This document shows, piece by piece, positions 1 through 9,405 of a stretch of 64,000 nt of DNA; within the stretch, counting starts at the first letter, position 1; each line of letters starts with the position of its first letter. Below the pieces are notes generated by a model. It was not told the origin of the DNA and searched no databases. It worked only from the letters and a program-made list of their open reading frames with translations. Location of the stretch: contig CAYILR010000020.1 in assembly GCA_964364175.1 (NCBI GenBank), positions 7,302 to 71,301 of the forward strand, read 5' to 3'. The DNA comes from an uncultured Bacteriovoracaceae bacterium. GTDB taxonomy: Bacteria; Bdellovibrionota; UBA1018. The position numbers and the translations under genes were made by a program.

Positions 1-91
1 AGGATTCCTTCAGAATCAGGGGTCACAAATTTGGGTGTGATTGACTTTCTCATCATCGCTCGGGTAGAGCACCCTCAGTGGAGGATGTATT

Positions 92-718
92 ATGGTGATT
101 TACGGGCTTCGTGCGCCGTTTCCGTTTCTTAAGGGACATGTTCGACATATTCGGCCGGTTTGGTTGATGGAGGAACTCGGTGTTCCATACGAACTTCATT
201 TTCTAGATTCCGACAAAGGTGATGAGACAACTCGGGAGTATCTCGAGATCAATCCATTCGGCAAAGTTCCGGCGCTTCAGGATGGCCCGCTCAAAATGTC
301 TGAGTCGGGGGCGATTTGTACTTATCTTGCCGAAAAATTTGAAAAACTGATTCCATCTGCGAGAACTCCCGAACGCGCTATCCATGATCAGTGGATGTAC
401 GTCGCTGTCACTATGGTGGAGCCGCATTCGGTTCGTGTTTTGTCTGCTGATTTTTTTTACGAGGGTGAACCCGAAGGTCCTGTTTTGCGTGAAGCTGCGC
501 TGGATGCGCTCGTTCCTACTTTGGAAGTTCTTGAGTCTCACTTAGGAAAAAATACCTACATTACTGGCAATGAATTTGCTGTTGCTGACATTATGATGAC
601 CGCCAGCCTAAGGCTGGTCTCGTACACAGATATTCTACAAAAATATCCGAGCATTTGTTTTTACATCAATCGCACGACCGAGAGACCGGCCTTTTTGAAG
701 GCTATTGCTCTACAGTAA
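92..718 (+). CDS. Glutathione S-transferase family protein
   Basis: 208-aa ORF. The N-terminal thioredoxin-like GST fold (FGKVPALQDG, SESGAICTYLAEKF) is followed by a C-terminal alpha-helical domain. Confidence 0.75.
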   Translation: MVIYGLRAPFPFLKGHVRHIRPVWLMEELGVPYELHFLDSDKGDETTREYLEINPFGKVPALQDGPLKMSESGAICTYLAEKFEKLIPSARTPERAIHDQWMYVAVTMVEPHSVRVLSADFFYEGEPEGPVLREAALDALVPTLEVLESHLGKNTYITGNEFAVADIMMTASLRLVSYTDILQKYPSICFYINRTTERPAFLKAIALQ

Positions 719-749
719 TTATTTATTTTAAATAGAATGTCTTCGCTGA

Positions 750-765
750 CATCAGCCGGCTGATG
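750..765. repeat. Perfect 16-bp palindrome CATCAGCCGGCTGATG at the 5' edge of duplicated cassette copy A
   Basis: Read directly from the sequence. The same motif, CATCAGCCGGCTGAT, recurs at 3906-3920 at the head of copy B, and both are followed by a conserved small hairpin GTCCGGTTTT(T/C)GGAC. Confidence 0.6.
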
Positions 766-926
766 TTTGGGTGCGGGTGCGGAGTCCGGTTTTTGGACAT
801 GTTGGAGTGTTTTCGGTCATAAAATGTTTCATTTTTTTTTATAACTTGTTGTATTTGCAAGGGATAAAAATTTCATCTCTCATAGAAACTTTGGTATTCT
901 GAGTGCTTCAGGACGGAGTATTTTAT

Positions 927-1220
927 ATGGAAAAAATGAATGAAAACCAGTTCGAAAAAATGAAATCAGAAATCTTGCCTTCTGACGAGGTAGAAGAGGG
1001 TGAGCTCTGGAAGGCTGTTCTTGCGTCGAAGCCACGTTTTTCTAGCAATGCTGAGGCAGCGGCGGCTTATAGGCTTGAATTGGATGAGCTTGCGGTGACT
1101 CATGGTCAGACAGTAGAAGACCTCCTTCATGAGGCGCATACATCTCATATTTTTAAAGACCATCATTTCCATGCGCTCGCTCTCGAGCGTCGCATTGGCT
1201 ATTTGAGCATAAAAAAATGA
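927..1220 (+). CDS. Cassette gene 1, copy A: small acidic protein of unknown function
   Basis: The ORF track gives 903..1220, but the likely start is MEKMNENQ at 927, preceded by GGACGGAG. It is about 75% identical to the copy at 4085..4372 and overlaps the next gene by 4 bp (ATGA). Confidence 0.55.
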   Translation: MEKMNENQFEKMKSEILPSDEVEEGELWKAVLASKPRFSSNAEAAAAYRLELDELAVTHGQTVEDLLHEAHTSHIFKDHHFHALALERRIGYLSIKK

Positions 1221-1678
1221 CTCAAAAACATGATTGGGCGAGTTACCAAACCTATATCAATGCACATGAGCGTGTTCTCAGAACGTATGCAAAATTCATG
1301 GAATATCCGAAGCGATATAAACTTGATGAGGTCAATGAAAATTGGTTCATTCTTTCATGCAAAGAGTTGATTTTTACAACGTATAACGGTGGCAAAATCA
1401 GAGTCGATATTATCAAGGATGTTGAAGTAGACGTCTCAGTACCGCAGCGGAAAAAAGCTCGGACTTTTGCTTACAGCTACAGTTGTAGTCGTCCAGGTGG
1501 ATCACGTCTTATACGATATGACAGTCCCGATACTGAGGTAGGTCCTAAAACACCTGATCATCACCGCTATCACCACAAACATGACTTCACGTCAGGCAAG
1601 GAAGTCATCACGAAAGTTGCAGACGACGCCTGGCCGCATGTCAGCGATTTTTTCAATGAGGTACTTACGAGTTTCTAA
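1217..1678 (+). CDS. Cassette gene 2, copy A: 153-aa protein with a His-rich C-terminus (HHRYHHKHDF), function unknown
   Basis: 153-aa ORF translationally coupled to gene 1. It is about 75% identical to the paralog at 4369..4830, with a very conserved C-terminal half (RKKAR.FAYSY.C.R.GG..LIRYDSPD...GPKTP.HH.YHHKHDFTSGKEVIT). Confidence 0.6.
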   Translation: MTQKHDWASYQTYINAHERVLRTYAKFMEYPKRYKLDEVNENWFILSCKELIFTTYNGGKIRVDIIKDVEVDVSVPQRKKARTFAYSYSCSRPGGSRLIRYDSPDTEVGPKTPDHHRYHHKHDFTSGKEVITKVADDAWPHVSDFFNEVLTSF

Positions 1679-1703
1679 GAGCGCATCTAAGGAAATGCTG
1701 TCG

Positions 1704-2636
1704 TTATGTCCCACGCTGGGCGGCGGCGTTGATTCCGGAGAGTTCCAGGCTGTCGTAATATTCTAGGTTATCTTTGATGGCGATGAGTCGGCTTTTGTAT
1801 TTGTCAGATACGTTTCTGTAAATTGCGCCGCCGATTCCGGCGATTGCGCAAGCGGCGTTGAACATGGGGTAGCCTTCTGGCGACTTTCCAAGACAAGTGA
1901 TGTTCGATACACGTCTTCTCAGAAAATTGTAGGTTCCTGGTACTGTTTTCACAAGCGCACCAGAGTCTTCCTGAGAGTAAGCCAAGATAAAATCTGCGCG
2001 AAAATGCTGATTCTTAAATTGTTCCTTGCGAAGCCGACCTGCGTCGCTGGAATACCACTCCACAAATCCGATGCGTGTGGCTCGAATCAAGAGTCCCCGA
2101 ACAAATGGATTGTCGCCGTAGGTTTTGCTTTTTCGCTCATCCACGTTGCCTTGCGAGTCAAAATACAGATCCAGAGTAGCGTTGCCATGAATCGAGTTTT
2201 CGACAAGGAGTTCTGGATAATCTAAGTGGCCATTGATTTTACTCGCGAGCAAATCAAAAACATCCCAGACTTTGCTTTCGGTTTCCAATAATTCTCGTGC
2301 AAACTCGGCGCTCTCGCTGCCAGTGGTTGTATGAGCTTTTTTTATTGTTTGGGAGGTAGTGCCAAGGATTGGCAAAGCGAATTTGGAGAGTGCTGCAAGA
2401 GTTCCTTTTTGAACTCTGTTTGGTACTTTAGTTTGAATAGAGGTAGGACGATTTTTTATCTGAGTTGGCGTCGGACTCAATAGTTCTACTGCTATCGACT
2501 GATGAGTCGGAGGTACTATTGTATTTTTGTGTAAAAGTGGCACTGCTGCATAGAATAACGCCAAGGCACCCGAGTGGATCAGGAGCGAAATTAGAAAATA
2601 ATTTCTCGATTTTTTATTTTTTCTCACTGGACTCAT
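1704..2636 (-). CDS. TonB-like energy transducer family protein (tentative)
   Basis: The N-terminal TM helix carries an S-x3-H motif (LISLLIHSGALAL), followed by a Pro/Thr-rich spacer. The segment YPELLVENSIHGNATLDLYFDSQGNV resembles a TonB C-terminal domain, although about 110 extra C-terminal residues follow it. Confidence 0.4.
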   Translation of the reverse strand: MSPVRKNKKSRNYFLISLLIHSGALALFYAAVPLLHKNTIVPPTHQSIAVELLSPTPTQIKNRPTSIQTKVPNRVQKGTLAALSKFALPILGTTSQTIKKAHTTTGSESAEFARELLETESKVWDVFDLLASKINGHLDYPELLVENSIHGNATLDLYFDSQGNVDERKSKTYGDNPFVRGLLIRATRIGFVEWYSSDAGRLRKEQFKNQHFRADFILAYSQEDSGALVKTVPGTYNFLRRRVSNITCLGKSPEGYPMFNAACAIAGIGGAIYRNVSDKYKSRLIAIKDNLEYYDSLELSGINAAAQRGT

Positions 2637-2682
2637 TCTCCCATAAAAAAGAACAATAATCGATGCTGGATTTGTTAGACAT

Positions 2683-2830
2683 GCGTCGACTTGGCTATCT
2701 CAGCAAATGACTCGGAAGCACGGCTGGGTGAGCTACCAGACTTATATCGATGCACATGAGCGTGTTTTGAAAACGTATACGAAGGAGGTGGCCAGATCGG
2801 TCCTAGAACACCTGCTTGCCACTACGATTC
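2683..2830 (+). pseudogene. Degenerate remnant of the duplicated cassette (tail of gene 1, then a start of gene 2 with internal deletions)
   Basis: 2683-2706 matches the 3' end of gene 1 (RIGYLSK stop). 2707-2770 is about 90% identical at the DNA level to the start of gene 2 (MTRKHGWVSYQTYIDAHERVLKTY). A 30-bp segment between two direct AAAACGTAT repeats is deleted, and the sequence then jumps to the GPKTP region. Confidence 0.5.
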
Positions 2831-2833
2831 TAC

Positions 2834-3718
2834 TCAAATTGCCGAACCTACTTGGTGTAGCTCGGGTTTTCTCAATTCAACAGCAACACCTTGAGATTGA
2901 GAGTCGAAGTGTTTGGATTCTTTCTGTGATTCGCGTGGGTCACGAAAAGAGGTTTTATCGAAGAGCGCTCTTCTTTGATCTTCAATTTTTTTCTGTTTTT
3001 CTCGTTCTATTCTCTGTTCTTCCTGTTCTTTTCTCTTTTGTTCCATTTCTAGTGCTTGTTTCTGCGCTTGATATTTTTTAGCATTCACTTGTTGATCCAA
3101 AGAATATTTGGCGCCCGCGATGAGATGCTTCACAGAATCGAGGGTGTTGACAAAGACATTGTTGAAACTAGTTTCGTGATCATGCCAGTCTGCTCTAGTG
3201 TTACAAAAACTGTTAGAACTGTTTATGTTATCTGTGCCGATCTCTTTTAAAAAATCATCAGAAACTTCAGATACTATGATACTGGTTGTCCTTGGTGCTG
3301 TTTCATTACCAAAATAGTAGGAAAGTTCATAATCAATCCGCTCCACGTCAGACATGATCGAATTATTGCTATTTCTGCGTATTCTTTCTTTAAGATGAAC
3401 ATATTTTGCTCCTAATGCCTCTAACTCTCGAATCCCTTGTTTTACTTCGGGGTTTTCTGCTGCTTGAATCAGTTGCTCATGTTTGAGAAAAGCACACATG
3501 GGTCGTTTATTAAGTTCCTGAAAAAGTCGCTCTTTTTCTTCTTTGGATCGATCAGAAGCCAAATATAAATCGATTGATGAATTAATGTAGGAACGGTCGT
3601 CCTCCAAATAAATTTTAACGCTCGGATGTTCGATTTTTTGACCTTCAGCTTTTGCAACCATTGGGGATGCAGAAACTGTTAAAGCCATAGCCAATAAATA
3701 TTTGTGATTAAATTTCAT
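2834..3718 (-). CDS. Secreted hypothetical protein with a charged coiled-coil C-terminus
   Basis: The signal peptide is MKFNHKYLLAMALTVSASPMVAKA. The C-terminus is rich in K/E/Q/R repeats. Confidence 0.5.
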   Translation of the reverse strand: MKFNHKYLLAMALTVSASPMVAKAEGQKIEHPSVKIYLEDDRSYINSSIDLYLASDRSKEEKERLFQELNKRPMCAFLKHEQLIQAAENPEVKQGIRELEALGAKYVHLKERIRRNSNNSIMSDVERIDYELSYYFGNETAPRTTSIIVSEVSDDFLKEIGTDNINSSNSFCNTRADWHDHETSFNNVFVNTLDSVKHLIAGAKYSLDQQVNAKKYQAQKQALEMEQKRKEQEEQRIEREKQKKIEDQRRALFDKTSFRDPRESQKESKHFDSQSQGVAVELRKPELHQVGSAI

Positions 3719-4084
3719 AAAACCTCTCTGGGATATGATTACGCAAAGGCCATGCCAGATAGGAACGGAGGACGATGTGCTTTAATGACTAATGAGCCCA
3801 GTCGTTATGAGAAAAATAAGCTAATTTAGTTTAAAAAATTAGTTACCTTTCTGACTAGTGTTAAAAACTTGAACAGTCTTTCGAACCAATCCACCAGCAC
3901 TCAAACATCAGCCGGCTGATTTTGAGTGCAAAAACGTGTAGTCCGGTTTTCGGACACGTTGAAGTATTTCCGACATAAAATATTTTCTATTTTTTTTATA
4001 ACCTGCTGGATTTGCTAAGGATTAAAGTTTCAGGATCTCTGGAAACTTTGGTATTCTAAGGGCTTCAGAACAGGAGTGTTTTTT

Positions 4085-4372
4085 ATGGAAAAAATAATTG
4101 AAAACCGGGTCGAAAAAATGAAATCAGAAATTTTGCCTTGTGACGAGGAGGGGGAGAGTGAGCTTTGGAAGGAGATTTGCGCAGCTAAACCGCTTTTTTC
4201 TAGCAACGCGGAGGCTGCAATTGCATATCGTCGAGAGCTTGATGAACTTGCAGTGACTCACAATCAGACGGTTGAAGATCTCCTTTATGAAGCCCACACG
4301 ACTCACTTTTCCAAAGAGCATCACTTTCGTGCTCTCGCTCTAGAACGTCGAATTGGCTATCTCAGCAAATGA
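4085..4372 (+). CDS. Cassette gene 1, copy B
   Basis: The ORF track gives 4076..4372, but the likely start is MEKIIENR at 4085. It is a paralog of 927..1220 and is preceded by the same 170-bp conserved leader (3906-4075). Confidence 0.55.
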   Translation: MEKIIENRVEKMKSEILPCDEEGESELWKEICAAKPLFSSNAEAAIAYRRELDELAVTHNQTVEDLLYEAHTTHFSKEHHFRALALERRIGYLSK

Positions 4373-4830
4373 TTCGGAAGCACGACTGGGCGAGCTACCA
4401 GACTTATATGGATGCACATGAGCGTGTTTTGAAAACGTATGAAAAGTTCATGGAATTTCCAAAAACGTATACGAAAGAAGTGGCCAACGAGAGTTGGGTC
4501 ATCTTTAGATGCCAAGAGTTGATTTTTACCACTTACAACGGAAGTAAAGTTCAAGTGGATCTCCACAAGGATGTTGAAATTGATGCATCAGTTCCGACAC
4601 GTAAAAAAGCGCGGATTTTTGCATACAGTTATCATTGTGGTCGCCTTGGCGGACCTAACTTAATACGGTATGACAGTCCAGACATTCAGATAGGTCCTAA
4701 GACACCGAAGCACCACTACTATCACCACAAACACGACTTCACGTCCGGGAAGGAAGTGATTACAAGAGTTCCAAACGACTCTTGGCCGCATGTGAGTGAT
4801 TTTTTCCATGAAGTCTTGATGACTTTCTGA
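4369..4830 (+). CDS. Cassette gene 2, copy B (153 aa, His-rich C-terminus)
   Basis: It overlaps gene 1 by 4 bp and is a paralog of 1217..1678. Confidence 0.6.
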   Translation: MIRKHDWASYQTYMDAHERVLKTYEKFMEFPKTYTKEVANESWVIFRCQELIFTTYNGSKVQVDLHKDVEIDASVPTRKKARIFAYSYHCGRLGGPNLIRYDSPDIQIGPKTPKHHYYHHKHDFTSGKEVITRVPNDSWPHVSDFFHEVLMTF

Positions 4831-4858
4831 TAATCAGCCTCATCGAAACGGGGTTCAA

Positions 4859-5404
4859 ATGGTTCAATCTGTAATGGTTTTGCTGACTTTGATGGGTTTG
4901 GGTGCGCCGGTGGCTTATTCGGCGGACTTGCTGAAATGTGAGTTTCACTCGATTGACCCTGAAGATCCTGTGATGCCGGTTGTGATTTCCAAAGACAAGA
5001 AGGGCAAATTGACTCTGTCTCTTCAAGGTGAGCAACCGGTGAGTTATCCGGTATTGCGTGTTCTTGACAGGACGCTCCCGAATCTCCAGGAGATGTTGGC
5101 TTGTGATTCGAGCAGTAATTCCTTGGATGAGTGCATGGACCGATATTCCAAAAAATACAGATTCTTGGATGCGTATGAATCGATGCTTCCCCGAGAAGTT
5201 CTCTATATGCGGGATTTGTCGCAGGACTCCGTGGTCAAAGCTGATTTTGGCCTGCAAATTGAATCGATTGCTCGTGTTAGAAAATATGCTGTCGTAGGCC
5301 CCAGCAAATTCGGGCTACCGGGTTTGAACGAATACTACGATGCCAATGACAGGTTAATCGGTAGAATTCTATTCCCCGGCATCGGCGCAGGACCTTGTCG
5401 GTAG
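4859..5404 (+). CDS. Secreted hypothetical protein
   Basis: It has an N-terminal signal peptide (MVLLTLMGLGAPVAYSA). I recognise no known domain. Confidence 0.45.
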   Translation: MVQSVMVLLTLMGLGAPVAYSADLLKCEFHSIDPEDPVMPVVISKDKKGKLTLSLQGEQPVSYPVLRVLDRTLPNLQEMLACDSSSNSLDECMDRYSKKYRFLDAYESMLPREVLYMRDLSQDSVVKADFGLQIESIARVRKYAVVGPSKFGLPGLNEYYDANDRLIGRILFPGIGAGPCR

Positions 5405-5436
5405 TTTTTTATCTGGTTCTTTTGTAAGCTTATCAA

Positions 5437-6165
5437 ATGATCTCTAGCCAAGACCTGATGGTGATCGGGTTCCTCGTGTTTCTTGAAGGAATCCTTTCGA
5501 TTGATAATGCTCTCGTGCTGGCCCTTTTGGCCAAGGATCTGCCAAAATCCTTGCAACGCAAGGCCCTGACATACGGGCTTGTGGGTGCGGTTTTATTCCG
5601 TCTGATTTCGCTGGGTCTGGTGACCTACTTGATCCGTTGGCGATGGGTCAAATTTGTGGGGGGAGGGTACCTTCTTTTCATTGCGATCAAGAATCTTTTT
5701 TTTGAGGACAAATCACCCCACAAGAAATTAAAAAAATCCAGTTTTTGGAAGACTGTCTTGGTGATTGAGCTGACAGACATCGCTTTTGCAGTCGATTCGA
5801 TTTTGGCTGCTGTGGCGTTGTCTAACAAATTCTGGATTGTCTTTACTGGCGGCGTTTTGGGTCTCATCATGATGCGGTTTGCGGCGAGCATTTTTATCAA
5901 AATGCTCGACCGGTTTCCTGCGTTCGAGACGACAGCCTATCTTTTGGTTTTGGCGATCGGGGTGAAGGTGATCCTGGAGGGAATGCAAATTCCTGGAATT
6001 GATTTCCATGAAACTCATGAGCCCCCATTCTGGATTTTTTGGACGGTGGCATTGATGTGTGTCTTGTATGGATTTTCCCCTGCGAAAAAGAAAAAATCAC
6101 TGGAATCTTCACTGAAGGAAGAAGAGAAACTCAGTGATGAAATTTCTGGAGATGAACAAAGATGA
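5437..6165 (+). CDS. TerC family integral membrane protein
   Basis: The protein is multi-TM and carries the IDNALVLALL signature typical of TerC/Alx/YkoY proteins. Confidence 0.8.
   Translation: MISSQDLMVIGFLVFLEGILSIDNALVLALLAKDLPKSLQRKALTYGLVGAVLFRLISLGLVTYLIRWRWVKFVGGGYLLFIAIKNLFFEDKSPHKKLKKSSFWKTVLVIELTDIAFAVDSILAAVALSNKFWIVFTGGVLGLIMMRFAASIFIKMLDRFPAFETTAYLLVLAIGVKVILEGMQIPGIDFHETHEPPFWIFWTVALMCVLYGFSPAKKKKSLESSLKEEEKLSDEISGDEQR

Positions 6166-7746: not shown

Positions 7747-7747
<1 letters not shown>
7316..7747 (-). CDS. Lys/Ala-rich basic protein (histone H1-like N-terminus), function unknown
   Basis: The N-terminus is TKTTKKKPVAIAKETKSETKSAKAPAKASKK. The gene lies immediately downstream of, and is coupled to, the sigma-54 activator gene. 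Confidence 0.45.

Positions 7748-9405
<1,658 letters not shown>

Follow-up and report, generated by a model that had tools for sequence, protein, structure and literature searches.

Two copies of a two-gene cassette in a Bacteriovoracaceae genome probably represent a TumE-TumA-like toxin-antitoxin operon with an unclassified antitoxin family

Two copies of a small two-gene cassette lie near one end of a 64,000-nucleotide stretch of DNA from an uncultured Bacteriovoracaceae bacterium (assembly GCA_964364175.1, contig CAYILR010000020.1, positions 7,302 to 71,301 of the forward strand; called here the window). Our analysis indicates that each cassette is probably a self-contained type II toxin-antitoxin operon resembling TumE-TumA, in which the downstream gene (gene B) would encode the toxin and the upstream gene (gene A) the antitoxin. 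A toxin-antitoxin-like architecture had already been noticed in an initial annotation made from the sequence alone, and this reading is supported by the coupling of the two genes wherever relatives were found, by the differing contexts in which the pair occurs, by purifying selection on both genes and by an asymmetric pattern of decay. The first cassette consists of gene A1, a putative TumA-type antitoxin gene (927-1220, plus strand; 97 residues), and gene B1, predicted to encode a TumE-family toxin (1217-1678, plus strand; 153 residues). Genes A2 (4085-4372, plus strand; 95 residues) and B2 (4369-4830, plus strand; 153 residues) form the second and carry the same respective assignments. In both, the two reading frames overlap by ATGA, exactly as first laid out, and the description of the gene A products as acidic agrees with their computed isoelectric points (pI 5.6 for A1 and 5.3 for A2). 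The gene B products are mildly basic (pI 8.4 for B1 and 8.5 for B2). A leader or regulatory region precedes each pair on the plus strand, at 745-926 in cassette 1 and at 3901-4084 in cassette 2; the segment 745-926 is 81% identical to 3903-4084.

The TumE-TumA superfamily (DUF6516/PF20126) was defined in 2023 (Durairaj et al., Nature 2023; PMC10584680). B1 matched PF20126 (Toxin TumE, formerly DUF6516) with 24.5 bits, marginally above the gathering cut-off of 23.4 (E 2.7e-5). B2, which is 71% identical to B1, gave no match in an hmmscan search against Pfam, and a precomputed annotation assigned PF20126 weakly to both proteins. As the direct match was marginal, membership was bridged through a profile search and through the relatives that it recruited. 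An exhaustive profile search with gene B among 1.84 billion representatives returned 147 proteins at E ≤1e-3. PF20126 was matched by 45 of the 110 near full-length relatives recruited, and the sole other family encountered among them was Vasohibin, in one marginal match (E 7e-4). When the 147 matches were pooled with six seeds, 151 of the 153 sequences fell into a single BLAST-linked cluster. Finally, alignment by hhalign of the clade profile with the distant-tail relatives, among them two proteins above the Pfam cut-off (P0119, 32 bits; P0108, 26.9 bits), gave a probability of 99.85% and an E-value of 7e-31 over residues 1-150.

The predicted structure of gene B points in the same direction. 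An AlphaFold2 model built on the 110-sequence alignment reached a predicted local distance difference test score (pLDDT) of 97.5 and a predicted template-modelling score of 0.90; it replaced a first run on six sequences (pLDDT 55.7), which was discarded. The predicted topology comprises a helix (residues 10-23), seven strands and a second helix (residues 142-152). Published TumE proteins are described as two helices packed on a seven-stranded antiparallel sheet, without relatives in the PDB (PMC10584680), and the gene B model likewise shows two helices and a seven-stranded antiparallel sheet with no confident PDB match. H120 and H122 are invariant in the 110 relatives, and K67, T83, Y86, Y88, R100, Y101, H119 and P140 are conserved in at least 90% of them; the conserved columns are also kept among more distant relatives (alignment A8). 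In the model these residues map to the adjacent strands beta3, beta4, beta5 and beta6, and would line one face of the sheet. Profile comparisons and modelling taken together, gene B is a divergent member of the TumE superfamily. The earlier statement that neither protein could be assigned to a known family therefore no longer holds for gene B; for gene A it stands. A scan of all four cassette proteins against NCBIfam returned nothing relevant.

What is known of TumE comes from the study that defined the superfamily. Six TumE proteins were found to be toxic in E. coli and to be neutralised by their upstream partner, and translation inhibition was shown for one of them, from Allochromatium tepidum, by a lower incorporation of 35S-methionine (PMC10584680). 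The partners, called TumA, are diverse and mutually unrelated (PMC10584680).

Gene A belongs to a small family: just 22 clusters, none with a Pfam domain or a name, were retrieved from 5.8 billion proteins by a word-indexed search with a 19-sequence profile. No Pfam family was assigned to gene A itself, the Antitox_RHH matches of 16.2 and 16.9 bits falling short of the 27.2 cut-off. Among 19 members of the family, eight sub-threshold matches to four families of the ribbon-helix-helix clan were obtained, the best with E 0.0054, and the recurrent segment resembling these models was a central L..LA...G.T.E.LL..A. No model of the clan reached its gathering score and none was retrieved in PDB profile searches, so that gene A was not classified as a ribbon-helix-helix protein. 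The resemblance lies between the gene A pattern L-x-x-L-A-x-x-x-G-x-T-x-E-x-L-L-x-x-A and the helix-G-x-S/T-helix core of ribbon-helix-helix antitoxins (PF20605, RHH_1 PF01402, FitA-like_RHH PF22513; CopG, ParD, Arc). Yet, the first helix of gene A would be about 4 residues longer than usual, and its putative DNA-binding part is central rather than N-terminal. Searches of the gene A profile (alignment A6) against PDB sequences also returned designed helical repeats and TAL-effector repeats, with whole-sequence E-values down to 2.5e-22. We rejected these as homology because the score sums many copies of a helix-HG-L/Q-T-helix motif, no single stretch of the TAL-effector chains being above threshold; such matches call for caution in automated annotation.

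Whether the two genes travel together was assessed in 19 related loci (five metagenomic contigs and fourteen loci from GTDB species representatives), each containing a relative of gene B. The initial annotation had called for a score of co-occurrence: gene A is immediately upstream of gene B in 19/19 loci, as in both window copies. The junction between them reads ATGA or GTGA (4-nt overlap) in 9 loci and TAATG (1-nt overlap) in 4, and the stop and start codons overlap or lie ≤4 nt apart in 17 of 18 junctions. The pairwise identities of A and B are correlated (r = 0.65, a value reached by 0/5000 Mantel permutations). Gene A evolves faster, with a mean identity of 32% versus 46% for gene B. In an all-against-all BLAST of flanking open reading frames of ≥100 residues, no gene besides A and B was common to any two genomes. 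It had been stated at the outset that the toxin-antitoxin reading would fall if both proteins mapped to a housekeeping family, or if the pair were confined to this genome and its copies lay in ordinary conserved synteny; we found no housekeeping family, and the pair is widespread outside this genome without conserved synteny. The named records with an A-B pair are all from Bdellovibrionota (Bdellovibrionales, Oligoflexia, Pseudobdellovibrionaceae and Bacteriovoracaceae), the records including one with an old 'Deltaproteobacteria' label and one unclassified bin. The module is multiple in this genome, with two copies and a remnant, and in a Bacteriovoracaceae metagenome-assembled genome (MAG), with two copies. 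Variable context, multiplicity and pseudogenised copies are the marks of mobility associated with type II toxin-antitoxin modules, and all are seen here. In the genome that contributed loci L001 and L007, a Gp49 (PF05973) gene and an HTH_37/HTH_3 gene form a HigB/HigA-like toxin-antitoxin module at L001:1105-1718, about 0.6-0.85 kb upstream of the A-B module, indicating that toxin-antitoxin genes cluster there.

The two cassettes arose by an old duplication. A repeat finder paired 783-875 with 3940-4032, 915-1209 with 4073-4367 and 1215-1514 with 4367-4666, at 72-77% identity. By sliding-window and global alignment, the duplicated unit starts at about 745/3900 and ends exactly at the stop codon of gene B; beyond these limits the identity is about 50%, as for unrelated sequence. 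The coding sequences of the two copies agree at 75-76% of nucleotides and 71-77% of amino acids, which, with the 81% of the leader, agrees with the first estimate of about 75-80%. We considered a larger duplicated unit and rejected it, since the intervening minus-strand genes (1704-2636 and 2834-3718) are not paralogs of each other (E = 12); they are, as had been noted, unrelated to the cassettes, and they are without a Pfam family. The further copies that it had been suggested to look for were not found in the 64-kb window by a hidden Markov model scan of all six frames.

Positions 1-5500 of the window are 100% identical in contigs of four independent assemblies, two from ENA and two from Logan, of the Hainich groundwater metagenome, so that the duplication is not an assembly artefact. 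Comparison of copies 1 and 2 by the Nei-Gojobori method gave a proportion of synonymous differences (pS) of 0.64 and about 1.45 synonymous substitutions per site (dS), which is essentially saturation, and ratios of nonsynonymous to synonymous rates (dN/dS) of 0.097 (gene A) and 0.117 (gene B). Purifying selection has thus maintained the two genes in both cassettes since the duplication, and the initial view of the copies as old paralogs was sound. Since the 180-nt leader is conserved far above the identity of synonymous sites, it must be constrained too. For gene A and gene B alike, the two copies are each other's nearest relatives, so the duplication arose within this lineage. The highest nucleotide identity in the cassette (87-93%) is found at 921-980, over the first ~18 codons of gene A, a stretch that across the family is the least conserved part of the protein; the constraint there may be at the nucleotide level, e.g. 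on the translation-initiation region.

A third cassette survives as a dead remnant (2664-2814, plus strand) in the 197-nt spacer that separates the two minus-strand genes. The block map against copy 2 reproduced the initial description of a relic with the stop of gene A, the start of gene B, a 30-bp slippage deletion and a large internal deletion. Positions 2684-2778 correspond to 4346-4440 with 95% identity and hold the final 24 nt of gene A, including its stop, and the initial 72 nt of gene B. The 30-bp deletion falls exactly between two AAAACGTAT repeats (4432-4440 and 4462-4470), after which 2770-2794 aligns with 4462-4486 (25 nt). About 200 bp are then lost before a last block, 2799-2814, which matches the GGTCCTAAAACACCTG segment and is recognisable as GGTCCTA(A/G)AACACCTG. 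The map added an 11-nt fragment of the leader (2664-2674, equivalent to 4004-4014) that had been missed and that retains half of the operator-like motif described below. Its presence implies that 4015-4345, with the promoter and almost the whole of gene A, was deleted as well. The residual open reading frame (2707-3081) keeps just 28 TumE residues and lacks the His motif. Being 95% identical to copy 2, when copies 1 and 2 are only about 75% identical to each other, the remnant branched off the copy 2 lineage much more recently than those two diverged.

Decay of the module was asymmetric. Gene B next to a broken gene A was found in 0 loci, and gene A next to a broken gene B in 3 (L014, L018 and L019); the window remnant lost both. 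In L014 (2612-3023), gene A is intact and gene B is frameshifted, with an internal deletion that removes the RPGG..LIRYDSPD segment. In L018:4986-5387 and L019:4986-5387 (JABFRR010000001.1, a Bacteriovoracaceae MAG), gene A is intact and gene B has an in-frame TGA after ...YTYHCW. This asymmetry is what would be expected for a toxin and its antidote. The modules of L018 and L019 are near-identical and 7.4 kb apart, and their gene B stays in frame past the TGA, including RYCSPH...FHHKH...WPHV; they represent either a duplicated pseudogene or a stop that is read through.

The promoter region is conserved across the clade. An extended -10 element of the TGnTAnnnT pattern, TGGTATTCT, is present on the plus strand at 892-900 in copy 1 and 4049-4057 in copy 2. 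The same pattern occurs 17-28 nt before the ATG of gene A in 17 of the 19 related loci and is followed by a GGAG-type Shine-Dalgarno sequence, which in copy 1 (GGAG, 915-918) lies 8 nt ahead of the ATG. A Gibbs sampler, run for an 18-nt motif with free placement within up to 200 nt upstream of the -10 element, identified an operator-like direct-repeat motif, TTTATAACTTGTTGTATT at 838-855 in copy 1 and TTTATAACCTGCTGGATT at 3995-4012 in copy 2 (both plus strand). Its consensus is roughly TTGyAAC-N3-TTGAwwT, i.e. two similar heptamers one helical turn apart, and it is located 54-55 nt upstream of the TG of the -10 element in 17/17 non-redundant loci. It was not enriched elsewhere in the 64-kb window and is therefore cassette-specific, which suits a dedicated operator better than the site of a global regulator. 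We also considered a sigma-54 promoter at TGGTATTCTGAGTGC. Despite the fitting GG-N10-GC spacing, this was rejected: the start inferred from it would lie within the Shine-Dalgarno sequence, and the clade alignment gives the TGnTAnnnT extended -10 element. Readings of the motif or palindrome as an IHF site, and as an integron attC site, failed on inspection for misfit to the consensus.

The 5' edges of the cassettes are marked by palindromes. A perfect 18-bp palindrome, ACATCAGCCGGCTGATGT (749-766), stands at the edge of cassette 1, and a 33-nt near-perfect one with the core ATCAGCCGGCTGAT (3897-3929; 16-bp arms, one bulged C) at that of cassette 2. The 14-bp core was found at the two cassettes alone in the 64-kb window (0.32 expected by chance). 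Cassette 1 retains just the 18-bp palindrome core, the outer left arm having been lost exactly at the duplication boundary. As no T-run follows the palindrome at 3897-3929 on either strand, it is not a canonical terminator. Strong palindromes, unrelated to these, also occur in several other loci, at 107-225 nt upstream of gene A. Conservation of the distal leader half extends to both paralogs and in part to L007; this half holds the palindromes, a GTCCGGTTTT(T/C)GGAC hairpin and an A/T-rich tract. A structured RNA or riboswitch in the leader was discarded as a candidate, there being no Rfam match and no significant fold shared by the copies: the RNA-fold z-score was -0.36 for copy 1 and -3.1 for copy 2, the latter accounted for by the palindrome at 3897-3929.

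These observations suggest the following scheme. A sigma-70-type promoter with the extended -10 element would drive a short-leadered bicistronic mRNA, on which translation of gene A would begin at a Shine-Dalgarno sequence of its own. For gene B, which starts within the stop of gene A, no such sequence is obvious, suggesting production by termination-reinitiation in amounts no greater than those of A. By analogy with characterised TumE proteins, the free gene B product would arrest growth by blocking translation, possibly as an RNase acting through its His/Lys/Arg/Tyr cluster. In the model, the open sheet face probably carries a nucleic-acid hydrolase site made up of K67, T83, Y86, Y88, R100, Y101 and H119-H120-K121-H122. 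The gene A product, a small helical protein, would neutralise gene B by direct binding, its C-terminal helix (HHFHALALERRIGYL) being predicted to cover the His-rich sheet face. Gene A protein, alone or with B, probably binds the direct-repeat motif and autoregulates the operon; the cis-element and the weak ribbon-helix-helix resemblance make such DNA binding a candidate activity. The candidate operator, with repeats one helical turn apart, shares this trait with the sites of ribbon-helix-helix antitoxins. Such spacing suits binding by a dimer of dimers. The module would move between genomic sites as a unit. In this genome it would have duplicated long ago, both paralogs being kept by selection, and a third copy that arose later, from the copy 2 lineage, would have been destroyed by deletions.

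Several points weigh against a TumE-TumA-like toxin-antitoxin operon. The direct Pfam score is marginal, B2 and most members of the clade being under the gathering cut-off, and RNase activity of TumE itself is still unproven (PMC10584680). Sequence comparison relates gene A significantly to no known family of antitoxins or DNA-binding proteins, and hhalign revealed no relationship with the partners of two neighbouring TumE clades (L024, L025). Those partners are likewise without a Pfam family, and their lack of relationship to gene A agrees with the published diversity of TumE antitoxins. Relative to the inferred transcription start, which is predicted some 7 nt past TATTCT, the operator-like motif occupies about -69 to -52, a position more typical of an activator site than of the operator of a toxin-antitoxin autorepressor. 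Lastly, tblastn found no relatives in plasmid or phage collections, and the four cassette proteins had no match in PADLOC-DB v2 at E up to 1.

The cassettes can be compared with established systems. With TumE-TumA, the cassettes share the toxin sequence family (by the Pfam match and the profile-profile alignment), the predicted fold and the invariant H-x-H, as well as a two-gene operon in which a small partner precedes the toxin, an arrangement found in the window and in all the related loci. Even the lack of kinship between gene A and other TumA proteins is what the defining paper describes as the norm (PMC10584680). Diverse partners already belong to the definition of TumE-TumA, so the A-B pair counts as a member of that known superfamily. 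The A-B clade differs in its marginal fit to the Pfam model, and gene A in forming an unclassified family (84-97 residues) with no significant relation to RelB or ribbon-helix-helix antitoxins. The tested TumE proteins were from Gammaproteobacteria (subcluster 1a), whereas the A-B clade is from Bdellovibrionota. The RelBE, HigBA and MazEF operons offer a second comparison: there too the antitoxin gene comes first and the toxin gene second with overlapping stop and start codons, an acidic antitoxin (in this genome) faces a basic toxin and evolves faster, the modules are multiple, mobile and prone to decay, and translation is the likely target. The cassettes differ from these operons in that the candidate operator is well upstream of the promoter instead of overlapping it. 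Novel here are the unclassified antitoxin family, the clade's marginal position relative to the Pfam model, its restriction to Bdellovibrionota and a promoter layout maintained clade-wide.

Other explanations were weighed against the toxin-antitoxin operon. Defence against phage has been demonstrated for many type II toxin-antitoxin systems. Gene B could accordingly belong to an abortive-infection or anti-phage module, its product being freed when a phage halts host gene expression or breaks down A, and then arresting or killing the infected cell. This proposal concerns the biological role and is compatible with the same molecular mechanism. The module is indeed small, mobile, multi-copy and variable in context, and in the genome of L001 and L007 it adjoins the Gp49/HTH_37 pair. 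Yet, neither protein matches a PADLOC model, no recognisable defence genes stand beside the cassettes in the window, the phage and plasmid collections hold no relatives, and the paper that defined TumE contains no phage data (PMC10584680). We regard a defence role as fairly unlikely. Export of B into prey as a predation effector, with A protecting the producer, is far less probable still. The clade is restricted to a predatory phylum, and the genes between the copies (1704-2636 and 2834-3718) appear, from their N-terminal signal-like or transmembrane sequences, to encode secreted or membrane proteins. Against this, B starts with MTQKHDWASY, without a signal peptide or recognisable secretion domain, its N-terminus being the conserved KHDW motif, which belongs to the globular fold; no secretion-system genes adjoin the cassettes, and TumE homologues are widespread in non-predatory bacteria and archaea (PMC10584680).

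A different view is that B is a domesticated nucleic-acid-binding or metal-dependent enzyme, with A as its dedicated regulator or chaperone, the pair serving Bdellovibrionota as a housekeeping or developmental switch. The clade might then be more than a selfish module: a regulated growth-arrest switch that predators retained and duplicated, e.g. to enforce the non-replicative attack phase, with A acting at the distal site around -60 as an activator or anti-activator and not as a classical autorepressor. Named records of the clade are limited to Bdellovibrionota, both paralogs remained under strong purifying selection after a very old duplication, and the whole promoter architecture is kept across the clade at 30-60% protein identity. 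Together with the constrained 180-nt leader, this implies more regulatory investment than in a typical addiction module. However, the genomic context differs in every genome, pseudogenised copies are common, B is never kept without A, and the tested members of the superfamily are toxic (PMC10584680). We consider such a switch quite improbable. The toxin-antitoxin operon that we favour would be a fairly ordinary selfish or stress module, distinguished by its unclassified antitoxin and its strongly conserved promoter layout.

Its main use is as annotation and as an experimental handle on an uncharacterised toxin fold, and it overturns no current understanding. Four hypothetical proteins and one intergenic remnant can now be labelled in a Bdellovibrionota-like groundwater MAG. 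The clade supplies divergent sequences with which the candidate catalytic residues may be narrowed, and its sharply conserved motif KHDW...RYDSP...HHxxHHKH is a compact target for mutagenesis. Gene A adds an unclassified partner to the antitoxins that putatively neutralise the TumE fold. The anciently diverged paralogs within one genome offer a natural test of cognate versus non-cognate neutralisation, and the conserved promoter/operator layout is directly open to probing for protein binding.

Some features of the surroundings may be recorded. Of the two minus-strand genes between the cassettes, one encodes a basic stretch followed by a hydrophobic helix and looks membrane-anchored; the product of the other starts with a signal-peptide-like segment and is highly charged and K/E/Q-rich in its C-terminal part. 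The GC content falls to 0.36 across 3201-4000, and no tRNA genes were found in the 64-kb window. In one assembly of the four (contig L021:1080-1089), 10 nt replace the 34 nt at 126-159, an in-frame strain-level variant in the N-terminal part of a glutathione S-transferase gene (92-718). According to the precomputed gene table of an identical contig (L020), a sigma-54-dependent activator (GAF, Sigma54_activat, HTH_8) is encoded at 7747-9405 on the minus strand, adjoining two ABC-transporter permease genes.

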